64,000 nucleotides of DNA from Acidimicrobiia bacterium (GTDB lineage Bacteria > Actinomycetota > Acidimicrobiia > IMCC26256 > PALSA-610). Positions 6,603 to 27,234 of the stretch are shown here, in pieces. The stretch's first letter is position 1. Each line of letters starts with the position of its first letter. The notes below the pieces were generated by a model. It saw nothing but the letters and a program-made list of their open reading frames with translations, was not told the DNA's origin and made no database searches. Location of the stretch: the NCBI GenBank assembly GCA_038202885.1, contig JBBREP010000005.1, forward strand, positions 15,144 through 79,143, written 5' to 3'. A program made the translations under genes and the position numbers.

Positions 6603-7386
6603 TGCGCGTCAGCGGCCAGATACGCACGAACGCTCGGCCGATGATGGCGCTCTTTTTGATCGGGCCAAAGGCGCGCGAATCTTCGGACGCGCAACGATTG
6701 TCGCCCATCACCCAGTAATACCCGGCCGGGATCACCTTCTTCGTGAGTGAGCGACCGGCCACCGGGCTCTGCGTATCACTCGGACATTCCGCGGTGGTCT
6801 GCACGTACGGCTCGAGGAGTTCGTGGCCCGTCGTCTGACCGGCCTCGGTGATGTACACGTGATTGTTGCGTGCCTCGACGGTCTCGCCCGGCAGGCCGAT
6901 CACGCGCTTGACGAGATCCTTGATGTTCTCGGTGCGTTCGCCGGGCGGCGCGCTGAACACCACGATGTCGCCTCGGTGCACCGCGTGCAGCCGGTACGAC
7001 ATCTTGTTGACAAGGATTCGGTCGTTGACCTTCAACGTGGGGACCATCGACGGCGACGGGATGTAAAACGCCTGGAACAGCGTGCCGCGGATGACGAGGG
7101 CGAGCACGATCGCGCCGATGACGAGGCCGAACCACTCGATGCCCTGGCGGGTCGCGTTGGAGCGGCGCCGGCGCCCCGCAACCGGGGCGGAGGGTAGGAG
7201 TTCACCCGTTCCGCCAGGTGTGCCCGACTCGGGTGGGCCATCTCCTGGCGGGCCGACGACCGCGACCGCTCCGTCGCTGGAGTCGGGCATCGGCGAGGGG
7301 TCGGCGGCGTCCATGATGTCGTCCTTGTCCGAGACCTCGGAGGGCTCCGTCTCGTCGCCCGGCGTCGCGTCTGCGTTCATCGTCAC
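6589..7386 (-). CDS. lepB: Signal peptidase I
   Basis: Catalytic Ser in IPSPSMVPTL, Lys in LVKRVIGLPG, and GDNRxxSxDSR. GTG overlaps the pafC stop. Confidence 0.93.
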   Translation of the reverse strand: MTMNADATPGDETEPSEVSDKDDIMDAADPSPMPDSSDGAVAVVGPPGDGPPESGTPGGTGELLPSAPVAGRRRRSNATRQGIEWFGLVIGAIVLALVIRGTLFQAFYIPSPSMVPTLKVNDRILVNKMSYRLHAVHRGDIVVFSAPPGERTENIKDLVKRVIGLPGETVEARNNHVYITEAGQTTGHELLEPYVQTTAECPSDTQSPVAGRSLTKKVIPAGYYWVMGDNRCASEDSRAFGPIKKSAIIGRAFVRIWPLTRIKFL

Positions 7387-8336
7387 GCAGTCGTTGCACG
7401 GTAGCGGGCGAGCACGCGCTCGGCGGCACGCGCGGCTGAGAAGCCGCTGGGACTGTCGCCCGCGCTGTCGGCGATCACTACCGCATCGGGGCCGAGCCGC
7501 AGGAGGAGGCGTTCGACAAAGGCCGGTTCACTCACCGTGAGTTCGGCGCGCAACCCTGCCTTGCCGAGTTCCTCCACCGACACGCACGGATAACGCTCGG
7601 CCACCCAGCGGGCCCGTTCGCGCAGTTGAAGGGTGATCGTCGCGTCGCCGGGCCGAGGGTGATACACCTGGTCACGAGCTTCCACATCGTCGGTCACTTC
7701 GAAATGCCGCCCAGTCGGGCGCACCGACCGGACCCGATCGATGCGAAACAAACGCAGGTCGCCGGCCCGTAGGCACATGGCGTCCAGATACCACGCCCCG
7801 GCTGCGTAGAACGCCGCGAGCGGCTCGATGTTTCGGGTCGTGAGCGCGTCGCGGCCCGCGCTCCAGTATTCGATTTCGAGCTCTTCGTGGTCGTCGACCG
7901 CTGTGCGCACCTCAGCGAGGAAGTCGGGTGCCGCAATCGTGACCGCGACATCGGGGAGGTCGAGCGCATCGGCCAGTTTTGCCAGCGCGGTCGCGAGCGG
8001 ACCCTTCGCATCGGAACCGGGCACCGCGAGCAATGCCCGTCCGGCCGCGAGGATTGCGAGACCTTCTCGTGGAGCGAGGCGCAACGGACGGCGGAAGGAC
8101 TCGGCCATCCGCAACGTGACACGGTCGTCGTCGTCGACCTCGACATCGATGTAGTCGCCGGGCGAGTACGGCGGCACGCCGACCATGAGCATCAGGTCGA
8201 GGTCGGCCTCGAGCGCGACGGGTTCCACATCGAAGCGTTCGGCGATGTCGCGTTTGGTGGTGCCGGGGTGCGCAACAATCCACGGAACGAGCGCCAGGAT
8301 GCGCTGAATCTCTTGTTCGGCGATCGGGCGCGTCAC
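7383..8336 (-). CDS. pafC: WYL-domain transcriptional regulator PafC
   Basis: RILALVPWI HTH start, GVPPYSPGDYIDV, WYL motif (AWYLDA) and RLFRIDRV; lies directly after pafB. Confidence 0.88.
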   Translation of the reverse strand: MTRPIAEQEIQRILALVPWIVAHPGTTKRDIAERFDVEPVALEADLDLMLMVGVPPYSPGDYIDVEVDDDDRVTLRMAESFRRPLRLAPREGLAILAAGRALLAVPGSDAKGPLATALAKLADALDLPDVAVTIAAPDFLAEVRTAVDDHEELEIEYWSAGRDALTTRNIEPLAAFYAAGAWYLDAMCLRAGDLRLFRIDRVRSVRPTGRHFEVTDDVEARDQVYHPRPGDATITLQLRERARWVAERYPCVSVEELGKAGLRAELTVSEPAFVERLLLRLGPDAVVIADSAGDSPSGFSAARAAERVLARYRATTA

Positions 8337-9355
8337 GTTGGCGCTCCCGTGGTACCGGCGGTTGTGGGCTTCTTCGCGCGCGTTCGCTGGGACGCCGGCG
8401 CGTCGGCGGCGGCCACCGATTCCAGCCAGGCGATGACGTCGGCGCGCAGTTCCGCGGGCGCGAGCACCTCGGCGTGGTCGAGGAAGCCGAGCACGAACGA
8501 TCGCACCGCGTCGCCGCGGACCGCATCGAACGTCACGAGCGTGCGGCCGTCGGCACCGTGGTCGACGACGGCATCATCACCCAAGCGATCGAGTGCACCA
8601 CGATCGTGGGATGGATCGAACGCCACGGTGACGCGCATCACTTCGCCGTCACCCAATTCCCACGGCGCGTCGAGCCGCACGGGCCGGCCCGCCTCCTCGA
8701 TCGGCGGTGTGAAGGATCCCGGCTGGCCCACGATCACGTCGCCGGTGATGCGGTCGGCCCGGAACGTGCGTCGCCCACGCCGCGCGACGTCGTAGCCGAC
8801 GACGTACCACTGTCCGCGCGCGGATTGCACGTTCCACGGTTGCACGGTGCGTTGCTCACCGCGGTATTCGAAGCGCACCTCGGCCCGCCGTCGCACACCG
8901 TCGAAGAGCGGCGCGAGCGCGGGCACCATCGGCAAGGCGGCGATCGGCGGAGGGTTCCCGACGCCTCCGGCGCTGGCGCCGAGCGCTTCGGCGGTCCCCG
9001 TGAGTTTCATCAACGCGCCTTCGCCCGCAGCAGTACCGAGCGCCACCGCGTTGACGGCAACGTGCAGCGCGGCCGTCTCGTCGGCGTCAAGGCCAAGGTC
9101 GGGCAGGTAGTAGTCGCTCGGCTTGACGCGATAGCCAGCCTCCACACCGTCGGCCATCACGCTCACGTCGATCGGCACCCCCATCGTGCGCAGCATCTCC
9201 TTGTCGCGCTCGAACGCGCGCCGCGCCGCGATCTCACTGTCGGGATACCCGATGATCTCCGAGACGATTTCGGAACGAGTCAAGGCTCGATCAGTGTCGA
9301 GCAATAACGCCAAGAGGTTCAACACGCGCTCGACGCGCGTTGCAGTGGCGGACAC
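8333..9355 (-). CDS. pafB: WYL-domain transcriptional regulator PafB
   Basis: RVERVLNLLALLL, RRAFERDKEMLR, WYVVG and RTFRADRI. TAGGAT lies 7 nt before GTG 9355. Confidence 0.88.
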   Translation of the reverse strand: MSATATRVERVLNLLALLLDTDRALTRSEIVSEIIGYPDSEIAARRAFERDKEMLRTMGVPIDVSVMADGVEAGYRVKPSDYYLPDLGLDADETAALHVAVNAVALGTAAGEGALMKLTGTAEALGASAGGVGNPPPIAALPMVPALAPLFDGVRRRAEVRFEYRGEQRTVQPWNVQSARGQWYVVGYDVARRGRRTFRADRITGDVIVGQPGSFTPPIEEAGRPVRLDAPWELGDGEVMRVTVAFDPSHDRGALDRLGDDAVVDHGADGRTLVTFDAVRGDAVRSFVLGFLDHAEVLAPAELRADVIAWLESVAAADAPASQRTRAKKPTTAGTTGAPT

Positions 9356-9374
9356 GGTCGCGATCCTAGAGGCG

Positions 9375-10733
9375 TCAGAGCGAAGCGATGAGTCGCTCCA
9401 CGCGCTCATCGCGGCTCTTGAATGGGTCTTTGCAGAGCACGGTGCGCTGCGCCTGATCGTTGAGCTTCAGGTGCACCCAGTCGACCGTGTAATCGCGCTT
9501 GCGTTCCTTGGCTCGCTTGATGAACGCGCCGCGCAGTTTGGCGCGCGTGGTCTGTGGTGGCGTGTCGACGGCCGTTTCGATATCGGCTTCGCTCACGAGC
9601 GTTTCGACGAGCCCTCGCTTGACGAGCATGGCGTAGAGCGAGCGCGATCGCGTGATGTCGTGGTACGCGAGGTCGACGAGCGCCACGCGCGGGCTGGCGA
9701 GCTGGAGGTCGTGTTTGGCTCGGTATTGCTCGATGAGGTGGTATTTGATGACCCAGTCGACCTCGGTCTGGAGCTTCAGCGGATCGGTCTCGATCGCTGT
9801 CATGACGTGCTCCCACATGTCGAGCGCCTGCTGTTCTTGATCGGTCAGCCCACGCCGCTTCGCGAACCGCAACGCGCGTGTGAGGTACTCGGACTGGATC
9901 TCGAACGCTGACAGCTCGCGACCGTTCGCAAGCCGCACCCGACGCCGACACGTGATGTCGTGGCTGATCTCGCGGATCGCCCGGATCGGGTTTTCGAGCG
10001 TGAGGTCGCGCCACGGCGCCTGGTCCTCTTCGAGCATTCGCAGGAGGATTGCCGTCGCGCCGCACTTGAGGAACGTCGTGTACTCGCTCATGTTGGAGTC
10101 GCCCACGATCACGTGCAGCCGGCGGAAGCGCTCGGCGTCGGCGTGGGGTTCGTCGCGCGTGTTGATGATGGGGCGCGAGCGTGTCGTTGCCGACGACACA
10201 CCTTCCCAGATATGTTCGGCGCGCTGCGCGATGCAGTACATCGCGCCGCGCGCGGTCTGGAGCACCTTGCCGGCGCCGGCGTAGATCTGGCGGCTCACAA
10301 GGAACGGGATCAGCACGTCGGTCGACTTGGTGAAGTCGCCCTCGCGCTCCACGAGATAATTCTCGTGGCAGCCGTAGGAGTTGCCGGCCGAGTCGGTGTT
10401 GTTCTTGAACAGGTACACCTCGCCGCGGATCCCCTCCTCGCGCAGGCGCTGCTCCGCGCTCTGCACCAGGCTTTCGAGGATGCGCTCGCCGGCCTTGTCG
10501 TGGATGACGAGATCGCGCACCGAGTCGCATTCGGGCGTGGCGTATTCGGGGTGGCTCCCGACGTCGAGATACAGGCGCGCGCCGTTTTCGAGGAACACGT
10601 TGCTGGAACGGCCCCACGACACAACTCGGCGGAAGAGGTAGCGGGCGACCTCGTCGGGGCTCAGCCTGCGTTGCCCGCGCAAGGTGCACGTGACGCCGTA
10701 CTCGTTCTCGAGTCCGTAGATACGACGCTCCAC
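9375..10733 (-). CDS. pafA: Pup-protein ligase PafA
   Basis: [52 protein letters not shown] and DWVHLKLND; GGGAGG upstream. Confidence 0.96.
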
Positions 10734-24985: not shown

Positions 24986-25103
24986 CGCGGCAATCTAACG
25001 GCGCGCCACCCGGCGAGCTCCGCTGATTTCCGGTGCCGCGGCGCCGTCTCGGGTCGGGGCTCGGGTTCGCCGAGCCGACTTGCTCGCGGCGACACTGGCC
25101 CAC

Positions 25104-25748
25104 ATGACGGACGCCACCCACTCCCGAGCCACACAACAGACCGTCGTGACGCTCGATCTCGAGGGCGTGCTCGTGCCCGAGATTTGGGTCGCCGTCGCCG
25201 AGCGGACAGGCATCGACGCGTTGCGGCGCACCACACGCGACGAACCCGACTACGACGTGCTCATGAAGGGCAGGCTTGCACTGCTGCAACAGCACGGCCT
25301 ACGGCTGGGCGACATCACCGACGTGATCGCGAGCATCGCTCCCCTGCCCGGCGCGCGCGACTTCCTCGACGATCTCCGCAGTCGCACGCAGGTGCTGATC
25401 CTGTCCGACACCTTCGAACAGTTCGCGCGGCCGCTCATGCTGCAACTCGGATGGCCCACGCTGTTGTGCCACCGCCTCATCGTCGACGCCGACGATCGCA
25501 TCGCCGACTACGAGCTGCGACTCCCCGACCAGAAGCGTTGCGCCGTCGAGGCGTTCCACGGGCTTCGCTATCAAGTGCTGGCGGCGGGCGACTCCTACAA
25601 CGACATCGCGATGCTGCTCGCCGCCGACGTCGGTGTGCTCTTTCGGGCCCCGGACACCGTCAAAGCGCAATATCCTCAACTTCGCGCGGTCGAGACCTAC
25701 GACGATCTCGCGGCTGCACTCGTCACACCCGCGCCGCGCGCGGAGTGA
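25104..25748 (+). CDS. thrH: Phosphoserine phosphatase / homoserine phosphotransferase (HAD family)
   Basis: TLDLEGVLVPEIW, TTRDEPDYDVLM, ILSDTF and AAGDSYND. Confidence 0.9.
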   Translation: MTDATHSRATQQTVVTLDLEGVLVPEIWVAVAERTGIDALRRTTRDEPDYDVLMKGRLALLQQHGLRLGDITDVIASIAPLPGARDFLDDLRSRTQVLILSDTFEQFARPLMLQLGWPTLLCHRLIVDADDRIADYELRLPDQKRCAVEAFHGLRYQVLAAGDSYNDIAMLLAADVGVLFRAPDTVKAQYPQLRAVETYDDLAAALVTPAPRAE

Positions 25749-25751
25749 TTT

Positions 25752-25819
25752 CGTAGCGGAGCCGACGCGAGCGGGAGCGATGTTGTGTCCTCGGCGTCGG
25801 CAAGACGCACCTCGCTACG
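25752..25819. other. Nested inverted-repeat (REP-like) structured element
   Basis: CGTAGCGGAG pairs with CTCGCTACG, and GCCGACGCGAG pairs with CTCGGCGTCGGC, each with a 1-nt bulge. Confidence 0.5.
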
Positions 25820-25842
25820 GAGGTCCTGGCAGGCTGAAACGT

Positions 25843-25892
25843 GACCGTGTGCCGCGATTTCGGGCGATCGCCTGAAATCGCGGCACACGGTC
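25843..25892. terminator. 50-bp near-perfect palindrome between convergent genes
   Basis: GACCGTGTGCCGCGATTTC-G-GGCGA|TCGCC-T-GAAATCGCGGCACACGGTC; 24 of 25 positions are complementary. Confidence 0.75.
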
Positions 25893-25895
25893 GAC

Positions 25896-26117
25896 TCAGG
25901 TTGGGGAGGACCTGAGCGGGTGGATGAGCGCGGCGAGGCTTCGCCGGCGGGCGGGTGTCGCCGTGGCTGCGCGCGCTTCCGCGGTGTCGCACAGCGGTGG
26001 TGGCGTCGCATTGCGTTCGGCGGCTCGGGCGCGCGTGACGAGGCGCCTCGTGGCCGCGGCCCTCTGGTGTTCGTCGATCTTTCCTCGGGCCAATTCGGCC
26101 AACATTTCGGGGTGCAC
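25896..26117 (-). CDS. Small hypothetical protein (73 aa), putative target of the divergent WYL regulator
   Basis: GAGG(AACC) RBS before the GTG. Sequence: MHPEMLAELARGKIDEHQRAAATRRLV... with a helical N-terminus and an Ala/Arg-rich tail. Confidence 0.6.
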   Translation of the reverse strand: MHPEMLAELARGKIDEHQRAAATRRLVTRARAAERNATPPPLCDTAEARAATATPARRRSLAALIHPLRSSPT

Positions 26118-26170
26118 GGTTCCTCGTCTCATATCCCACGTGTGTGCCTACACCGTTATATTTCTCACCG

Positions 26171-26220
26171 ATCGTACGGCGATACCCTGACATCTACTGT
26201 CAGGTATCCGCGAATAGTCT
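26171..26220. promoter_or_regulatory. Palindromic operator CTGACA-N5-TGTCAG with divergent -10 elements
   Basis: CTGACA at 26187-92 and TGTCAG at 26198-203. Minus strand: TGTCAG-N10-TACGAT (26176-71). Plus strand: TAGTCT (26215-20), 6 nt before the WYL GTG. Confidence 0.7.
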
Positions 26221-26226
26221 TGGCCG

Positions 26227-27234
26227 GTGCGCGCGGCCCGTCTCGTCTCGATGCTGCTCCTGTTGCAGCAGCGAGGTCGGCTGACCGCAGAGCAACTCGC
26301 CGCCGAGCTCGAGGTGTCAGTGCGCACGATCTACCGCGACCTCGAAGCGCTGAGCGCGTCGGGGGTTCCCGTCTATTCAGAGCCGGGCCGCAATGGCGGC
26401 AGCCAGCTCGTGCAGGGGTACCGGACCCGGCTCACCGGTCTCACCACCAAGGAGGCCGAGGCGCTGTTCGCATCGGGGATCTCCGGTCCGATCGGTGAGC
26501 TCGGACTCGGCACCGTGCTCGGCGCCGCGCAGCTGAAGCTCCTCGCCGCACTGCCGAAGGAGCTCGCAGAACGCGCGGCACTCGCGCAACAGCGCTTCCA
26601 CTTCGATGCGCCGGGTTGGTTTCGTGGCGAGCGCAATGATCCACATCTCGCTGCACTCTCAAGCGCGGTGTGGGAAGACCGTTGTGTCGCCATCGAATAC
26701 CGCCACCCCGGCTCGAGCAAACCCGCACCGCGCCGCCTGGAACCGCTCGGACTCGTGTGCAAGGGGGGCGTCTGGTATCTCGTCGCGACGCGCGACGGTG
26801 AGATGCGCACCTACCGTGTCTCGCGCATCCAGACACTGACAGTCCTCGATGAACAATTCGACCGCCCGCCCGACTTCGATCTTGAGCGCTACTGGGATGC
26901 AACGGTCGCGACCGTCGAGACGTTGCCGCCCCCCGTCGATGTCGTGGTGCGCGCGTCGTCCGCCGGACTCGATGCGCTGCGCCCGATGACCCACCATTTC
27001 GGCGTCGTACTGGTCGCCCACGAGACTGCCGACGACAGCGGCTGGCACGAATGCCGCCTCGTGTTCGAGAATCTCGACGACGCCTTCATCGATCTCATCC
27101 GGCTGGCCGCCGATGTCGAGGTGCTGACGCCCGCCGCGTTGCGCGCGACCGTGGCCGGCGCGGCCCGAGCAATGACGGCGCTCTATTCGGCGTCGACCAG
27201 GTCGAGCACCTCGTCGAGGCGCCGGGTCAGGTAG
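26227..27234 (+). CDS. YafY-family HTH-WYL transcriptional regulator
   Basis: [14 protein letters not shown]...[26 protein letters not shown] and RTYRVSRI. Confidence 0.92.

Follow-up and report, generated by a model that had tools for sequence, protein, structure and literature searches.

Can one WYL-domain transcription factor, one palindromic operator and one protein of only 73 amino acids make up a complete regulatory circuit, and if so, of which kind? This question is raised by a 478-bp gap (25749-26226) in a 64,000-nucleotide stretch of DNA from an Acidimicrobiia bacterium (in the following 'the window', i.e. the whole stretch analysed, positions 15144-79143 of contig C5 in a 4.1-Mb assembly of 229 contigs with 67% G+C). 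The gap is bordered by a HAD-hydrolase gene on one side and by a gene for a regulator of HTH_11-WYL-WCX architecture on the other, and it contains a small open reading frame (ORF) divergent from the regulator gene. Our data suggest, with a probability of roughly 0.6, that the two divergent genes form a module of the type known from SiwR and DriD, i.e. a local WYL regulator for which the small protein is the only dedicated target and which probably acts as an activator triggered by single-stranded DNA (ssDNA).

At the centre of this arrangement lies a palindrome at 26181-26208, which is composed of GATACCCTGACA (26181-26192), TCTAC (26193-26197) and TGTCAGGTATC (26198-26208), with the core CTGACA-N5-TGTCAG at 26187-26203 and with arms that match perfectly over 7 nt (CCTGACA/TGTCAGG) and continue for five further pairs with one C bulged. 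Read on the minus strand, it gives TGTCAG-N10-TACGAT, with the predicted -10 hexamer at 26176 to 26171 and a transcription start predicted at about 26164, i.e. facing the small ORF; read on the plus strand, it gives TGTCAG-N11-TAGTCT (-10 hexamer at 26215-26220), followed after 6 nt by the GTG start codon of the regulator gene (26227-27234, 335 amino acids), with 26227 also being the predicted transcription start. The palindrome, both spacings and the ORFs had been read correctly in the initial annotation of this DNA. Since there is no Shine-Dalgarno sequence and the -10 hexamer ends only 6 nt before the GTG, the regulator gene is predicted to be leaderless; in more than 30 homologues the MRA.R N-terminus starts at the same point, with the -10 hexamer 6-7 nt upstream and again no Shine-Dalgarno sequence. 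The mRNA of the small ORF is predicted to begin with about 46 nt of leader, in which a Shine-Dalgarno sequence is present. The palindrome spans approximately -43 to -19 of both predicted promoters, the start sites of which are about 63 bp apart, and the promoters overlap, so that only one RNA polymerase could occupy the region at a time. Neither promoter has a -35 element or an extended -10, and a sigma-70 consensus scan found no -35/-10 promoter in the region.

The exact core CTGACA-N5-TGTCAG occurs once in the 4.1-Mb genome, with about 0.1 occurrences expected as estimated from base composition. With one mismatch allowed, the window has two matches against 0.16 expected, the second of which (50661) was discarded as it lies inside a coding region. 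Palindromes of CTGACA/TGTCAG with an N4 spacer at C40:16263 and C54:13838 adjoin SDR/amidohydrolase and P450-like genes rather than WYL genes and were not counted with this regulon; they probably serve as terminators or are bound by other regulators, and one of the pair has 12-bp arms (TTACCTGACA-CGCG-TGTCAGGTAA).

The operator is also conserved. A family-wide search yielded 14 orthologues of the regulator, 61-68% identical and spread over 6 of 20 genera, and all 14 loci carry the palindrome, usually in the form TTCCCTGACA-N5-TGTCAGGGAA with palindromic arms of 10 bp. For the composite pattern CTGACA-N5-TGTCAG-N10-TAnnnT, a set of 401 genomes from the class contains 12 matches (in 8 genomes), as against none for the reversed control. 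The distances from half-site to -10 are maintained at both promoters. On the regulator side, 13 of the 14 loci have a TAnnnT hexamer, mostly TA(G/T)(T/C)TT, 6-7 nt upstream of the start codon, with a spacing of TGTCAG-N10 in the orthologous loci checked (N11 in the window) and with a tandem-repeat insertion on this side in locus L035; on the side of the small ORF, 12 of the 13 loci aligned keep GGCGTAcnGT, likewise at N10. These comparisons support the palindrome as a conserved operator that would be common to two divergent predicted promoters.

But is it the adjacent protein that reads this operator? A six-frame search of 41 relatives found 19 homologues of the regulator, every one of which shows, in the same orientation, a palindrome, then a -10-like hexamer and then the start codon 6-7 nt further on. 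When helix residues 32-36 were compared with the upstream palindromes over loci L001-L025, two classes emerged: CCCTGACA-N5-TGTCAGGG (CTGACA/TGTCAG) is associated with the recognition helix S-V-R-T-I-Y-R-D (V32/Y36), and AACCGGTCA-N5-TGACCGGTT (GGTCA/TGACC) with S-E-R-T-A-R-R-D (E32/R36), with the spacing of about 10 nt (half-site-N10) confirmed in individual loci from both classes. Because the helix covaries with the class of operator, the regulator encoded next to the palindrome is likely to be the protein that binds it, and this covariation is the best in-silico evidence on this point.

Comparison with known structures is consistent with this assignment. The regulator carries HTH_11 (residues 9-57, 1.6e-16), WYL (139-206, 2.9e-21) and WCX (235-316, 2.5e-9) domains, all above the curated Pfam cut-offs, and aligns with PDB chains of DriD (E = 5e-7) and PafB/C. 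In DriD, which binds CGAC-N7-GTCG (PMC13004042, PMC10853764), R37 reads G2, R41 reads C4 and E40 reads C1 of the half-site CGAC (PMC10853764). R33 and R37 of our regulator align with these two arginines, while Y36 takes the position of E40; correspondingly placed, the half-site here is TGAC and the core is TGAC-N7-GTCA, such that both operators have the form xGAC-N7-GTCx with equal half-site spacing. In the WYL domain, Y158, R169, W183-Y184-L185, R194, Y196, R197 and R200 are invariant in the 14 orthologues, and both the strand of the ligand pocket (R194-T-Y196-R197-V-S-R200) and the W-Y-L motif are intact. DriD contacts ssDNA through Y168, R178, Y192, R204, W206, R207 and Y240 (PMC10853764), the first six of which align with Y158, R169, Y184, R194, Y196 and R197, respectively. 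Judged by alignment, the DNA-reading residues and most of the residues for ssDNA contact are kept in this regulator.

A second candidate for operating these promoters is encoded nearby. As the initial annotation had pointed out, this genome also has pafB and pafC (7383-9409, minus strand, about 17 kb from the module), and the rule for PafBC-dependent RecA-NDp promoters in mycobacteria, TGTCRG-N10-TAnnnT (PMC6789036, PMC11804915), is matched by the minus-strand promoter and, with N11 instead of N10, approached by the plus-strand promoter. PafBC might then fire both, the palindrome being nothing but two back-to-back promoters of this type and the module a part of the global DNA-damage regulon. 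In this genome, the classical TGTCRG-N10-TAnnnT is not enriched in a genome-wide scan, but TGTC[CG][GT]-N10-TAnnnT is, with 10, 11 and 7 occurrences at N10 versus 0-4 at other spacings. This box is located upstream of recA (C25:769, confirmed by tblastn) as well as upstream of radA, uvrB, ligA, a UvrD-like helicase gene and gyrB (identified from their N-termini only), and the genes that carry it are mostly leaderless (e.g. at sites C12:51738, C20:28757, C2:134019 and C31:19552). On these sequence grounds a PafBC-type DNA-damage regulon exists in the organism, and at position 5 its box is unlike TGTCAG, which at N10 is found at the module only. A further WYL-domain regulator gene, the fourth, at a contig end (C139:82-725), is leaderless and preceded by TGTCCT-N10-TAGTTT; it is a candidate member of this regulon and, as a WYL gene with a PafBC-type box, a point in favour of PafBC control of the module as well. 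As an aside, the recA gene itself (C25:869-2911) contains an interruption of about 1 kb, which in the alignment with E. coli RecA falls between residues ~205 and ~165-325 and is probably an intein.

Further differences concern the proteins and their sites. PafBC is a heterodimer encoded beside pafA, which binds a non-palindromic site only together with RNA polymerase and controls about 150 genes. The regulator of the module is likewise a WYL-domain protein associated with leaderless transcripts, but it is encoded by a single gene, is only 25-27% identical to PafB and PafC of the window, and has a box that lies in one of the 7-10-bp arms of a palindrome. Moreover, the module occurs in 14 of 63 genomes of the family and is absent from the two genomes of the same genus. 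Palindromy, the 10-bp arms in the orthologues and the covariation of these arms with the neighbouring recognition helix point to a local regulator rather than to PafBC, and control by PafBC itself appears highly improbable, although some cross-talk with it is possible. The term 'PafBC-type' in the initial annotation is apt for the promoter geometry; it does not extend to the protein, which is no PafB/PafC heterodimer on a non-palindromic site, nor to the box, which in this genome is TGTC[CG][GT].

The other half of the module is the small ORF, which starts with GTG at 26117, ends at 25896 on the minus strand and encodes 73 amino acids (MHPEMLAELARGKIDEHQRAAATRRL…, followed by a basic tail) behind the Shine-Dalgarno sequence GAGGAA (26120-26125, minus strand). 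An upstream ATG at 26132, which would give 78 amino acids, was rejected as the start, because it falls within the Shine-Dalgarno region and the conserved start is a different one. The ORF is present at 11 of the 14 orthologous loci, or 12 if a variant in L037 is counted, with the N-terminal pattern M-H-P-[DEN]-[IM]-L-x-x-L-A-R-x-E-x-H-x-R…A..RRLA..AR (beginning in the form MHP[DEN]ILLQLAR…) and, wherever the ORF is present, with a purine-rich Shine-Dalgarno-like stretch at the same place (mostly GGGAGGGG). Substitutions are of the coding type, and conservation of the ORF, which the earlier reading had made a test of its proposal, is borne out by them: in the first 33 codons from eight orthologues, variation is seen at 31 of 32 third codon positions, as compared with 21 first and 17 second ones; codon differences between pairs (synonymous/non-synonymous) are 187/373 in frame versus 69/457 and 40/476 in the other frames; and the G+C content at the three codon positions of the first 30 codons (0.70/0.47/0.80) resembles that of the regulator gene (0.72/0.51/0.80). 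In addition, the ORF has been called as a gene on other, independent JGI and NCBI records.

Nevertheless, the ORF could also be a leader, an upstream ORF or part of an RNA element, with the true product being an RNA or a downstream gene. Well conserved are only about 32 N-terminal codons, with a tail length that varies from 61 to 115 amino acids, and the leader itself contains a conserved block in the 5'-untranslated region at 26135-26164 on the minus strand (GAAnnAnAAnnGTGTAnnCACA…; GAAC.ACAA..GTGTAACCACA in the alignment of loci L002-L004, L028-L037 and L040), which is kept even where the ORF begins further downstream and is partly present in a copy without a WYL gene. At L003, and there alone, a Glyoxalase_6 gene follows on the same strand and overlaps the end of the ORF. 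On the other hand, synonymous change is in excess in frame, start codon and Shine-Dalgarno sequence are conserved, and a motif RR[PR][ST]…HPL near the C-terminus recurs between genera. The leader block gave a weak fold without covariation in RNAalifold and has no repeats elsewhere in the genome. In the window and at most other loci, no gene follows the ORF on the same strand; what follows is a hairpin and a convergent gene. The hairpin of the window (25843-25892, 3 nt past the stop codon of the ORF) has perfect 25-bp arms and a folding energy as RNA of -48.6 kcal/mol (z = -8.2), with no clear U-tract, and faces the convergent HAD-hydrolase gene (25080-25748, plus strand), for which, together with the small ORF, it probably provides a bidirectional terminator. 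An Rfam scan of 25600-26400 returned only a spurious match of a microRNA model to this hairpin, far below the gathering score. A non-protein role of the ORF thus seems very unlikely, and we regard it, by its pattern of substitutions, as a protein-coding gene of a very rare family.

What kind of protein is it? AlphaFold2 predicts a helix from residue 3 to 37 (predicted local distance difference test score >90), then disorder and finally a second, short helix from 57 to 65, i.e. one long amphipathic helix with an arginine-rich basic tail. Profile searches against Pfam, NCBIfam, PADLOC and PDB gave no significant match, and the profile of the small protein itself found 6 matches among 5.8 billion proteins and 6 among 1.84 billion cluster representatives. 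In an exact look-up in a collection of 15 billion proteins neither the regulator nor the small protein was found, perhaps because GTG had been translated as V. Our guess would be a basic stress effector that binds protein or nucleic acid.

The two genes also stay together when their surroundings change. Flanking genes are common to loci within genera but not between genera, and as only regulator, operator and small ORF travel together, these form a two-gene module, in line with the earlier proposal of a self-contained unit. Matches to the small ORF within the family adjoin a WYL orthologue in 10 genomes. The contig order in the JGI record is WYL (-), small ORF (+), DUF6582 (-) and Oxygenase-NA (+); an operon of small ORF and Oxygenase-NA gene, considered for one genus, was ruled out by the convergent DUF6582 gene in between. 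Other homologues of the regulator with the CTGACA/TGTCAG operator (L005-L008, L021, L024, L025 and L003) face different single divergent genes, encoding PNPOx-like, transglutaminase-like, NIPSNAP, GST, DUF3224 and Glyoxalase_6 proteins. In such comparisons, the pair of regulator and operator behaves like a socket into which varied small cargo may be plugged.

How could this module work? The closest characterized system, and one of the same circuit type, is SiwR of Mycobacterium smegmatis, a homodimeric activator, under genotoxic stress, of the divergent local dinS operon (msmeg_1357-56), which recognizes an imperfect palindrome (19 bp) located between -35 and -10, depends on an essential -26 element and binds ssDNA with its WYL domain (Keller, Flattich & Weber-Ban 2023, PMC10693628). 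Similarities include the single gene for an HTH-WYL-WCX protein divergent from its local target, a short intergenic region with a palindrome that lies between the -35 and -10 positions and whose proximal part, as placed by the predicted -10 hexamers, is at about -26, and the arginines in the WYL beta-strand (of the SiwR R204/R207 type); activation and ssDNA binding are features demonstrated for SiwR, with which the module is compared on the basis of its published description. In contrast to the DinB_2/DUF664 enzyme operon controlled by SiwR (Glyoxalase_6 in some species), the target here is a family-less helical basic protein, whose mRNA has the leader with a Shine-Dalgarno sequence. DriD of Caulobacter crescentus, whose targets include the small division inhibitor DidA (PMC9186387, PMC10853764, PMC13004042), recruits RNA polymerase to promoters that have no -35 element, from a pseudo-palindromic site whose distance to the -10 is constant (PMC13004042). 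It shares with our regulator the wHTH-WYL-WCX architecture, the two base-reading arginines, the fixed distance between site and -10, and a small protein as output. However, DriD controls several unlinked promoters, from a site described as extending over the -35 position and with contacts to the beta subunit and the C-terminal domain of the alpha subunit of RNA polymerase, whereas here one symmetric site, unique in the genome, serves two promoters; and DidA is a membrane protein unrelated to the soluble basic helix encoded here.

Following these examples, the WYL protein, presumably as a homodimer like SiwR and DriD, would bind the palindrome with its winged helix-turn-helix at a site with its centre at roughly -31 of two divergent and overlapping promoters, such that the near half-site TGTCAG would take the '-26' position, 10-11 nt upstream of TAnnnT, in the geometry of SiwR and PafBC. 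Single-stranded nucleic acid would bind to the WYL domain, and the regulator in its ligand-bound state would recruit RNA polymerase to the minus-strand promoter to produce a monocistronic mRNA of about 320 nt, which ends at the 25843-25892 hairpin and encodes the small protein as the sole dedicated output of the regulator. The leaderless mRNA of the regulator would come from the mirrored promoter, i.e. by positive autoregulation. In this scheme, dimer state, activation, ligand and role of the small protein are what we infer, and ligand-triggered activation is favoured because the phasing of half-site and -10 is fixed to 1 nt and because of the analogy to SiwR and DriD.

The main alternative is a repressor, i.e. 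a WYL dimer that occludes both promoters until a ligand releases it and thereby derepresses the small ORF together with the regulator gene. Precedents are BrxR and CapW, which are defence-associated wHTH-WYL-WCX repressors beside BREX or CBASS systems (PMC9122601, PMC9122588, PMC11662680), with CapW reported to sense ssDNA (PMC11662680). The module resembles them in domain architecture, in the palindrome in the regulator's own promoter region and in local control of neighbours, and a Streptomyces homologue (L021) with the same palindrome 15 nt from its start codon looks like a case of autorepression. What sets the module apart is promoter phasing of an activator-like kind. In both operator classes alike, half-site and -10 keep a distance that is constant to 1 nt, which a steric repressor would not need, and this distance is identical to that of the PafBC-type activator-dependent promoters of this genome and to the -26 arrangement of SiwR; also, the two promoters lack -35 elements and extended -10 motifs. 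Neither is there a defence gene adjoining or seen near the module, the PADLOC matches being to the WYL protein alone and to generic WYL models. Taken together, repression is considerably less probable than activation.

Some observations weigh against ligand-triggered activation of a dedicated small-protein target, or at least against parts of this reading. A repressor would be served equally well by an operator that extends from -43 to -19 of both promoters, and in Actinobacteria nothing can be concluded from a missing -35 element. Position Y240 of DriD is unmatched in the alignment, so that the ligand could differ, and WYL domains also bind single-stranded RNA or cyclic di-GMP. The basic tail of the small protein is variable and poorly conserved. 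Two orthologous WYL loci (L033 and L035) have no small ORF, and two copies of the small ORF (G061:C250 and G041:C2) stand without an adjacent WYL gene or operator, which makes the linkage strong but not absolute. Finally, the sequencing runs found to contain this stretch are DNA only, from a sediment metagenome.

The wider neighbourhood of the regulator gene consists of the HAD-hydrolase gene, a gene for an extracytoplasmic function (ECF) sigma factor and a gene for a YCII protein. The 3' end of the regulator gene overlaps that of the convergent sigma factor gene by 52 nt (27183-27234); the sigma factor has Sigma70_r2/r4 and DUF6596 domains, and the YCII gene comes next. The regulator of the window is about 15 amino acids longer than its orthologues.

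Overall, the circuit is another local WYL module of the SiwR/DriD type, the novelty of which lies in its cargo, a rare, helical and arginine-rich microprotein. The description as an apparently undescribed circuit in the initial annotation was therefore too strong, since SiwR represents the same circuit type (PMC10693628); the cargo alone is new. A bolder version, which we consider possible but rather doubtful, would have the MHPxILLQLAR… microprotein as a novel stress effector and as the only output of a homodimeric WYL activator that senses ssDNA, with one symmetric operator firing two back-to-back half-site-N10-TAnnnT promoters. If so, the module would be a living intermediate that illustrates how the palindromic sites of homodimers gave rise to the '-26' half-site promoters of PafBC, and the Y36/R36 switch in the recognition helix would be a simple operator code for this clade of WYL proteins.

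Significance is limited by the narrowness of the family, by an organism that is not in culture and by a regulatory principle that is already known. Yet, to our knowledge, SiwR is the only one of the abundant local WYL regulators of Actinobacteria that has been studied. With one regulator, one operator and one 73-amino-acid product, the module is near minimal size, and could thus become a clean test bed for how a homodimeric WYL factor uses a symmetric site at two divergent promoters, for whether the '-26' geometry implies PafBC-like sigma adaptation and for what small proteins under the control of such switches do. The covariation of helix and operator over 30 loci provides testable rules of specificity. 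As for the small protein, its family is almost absent from databases, and any function found for it would therefore be new.

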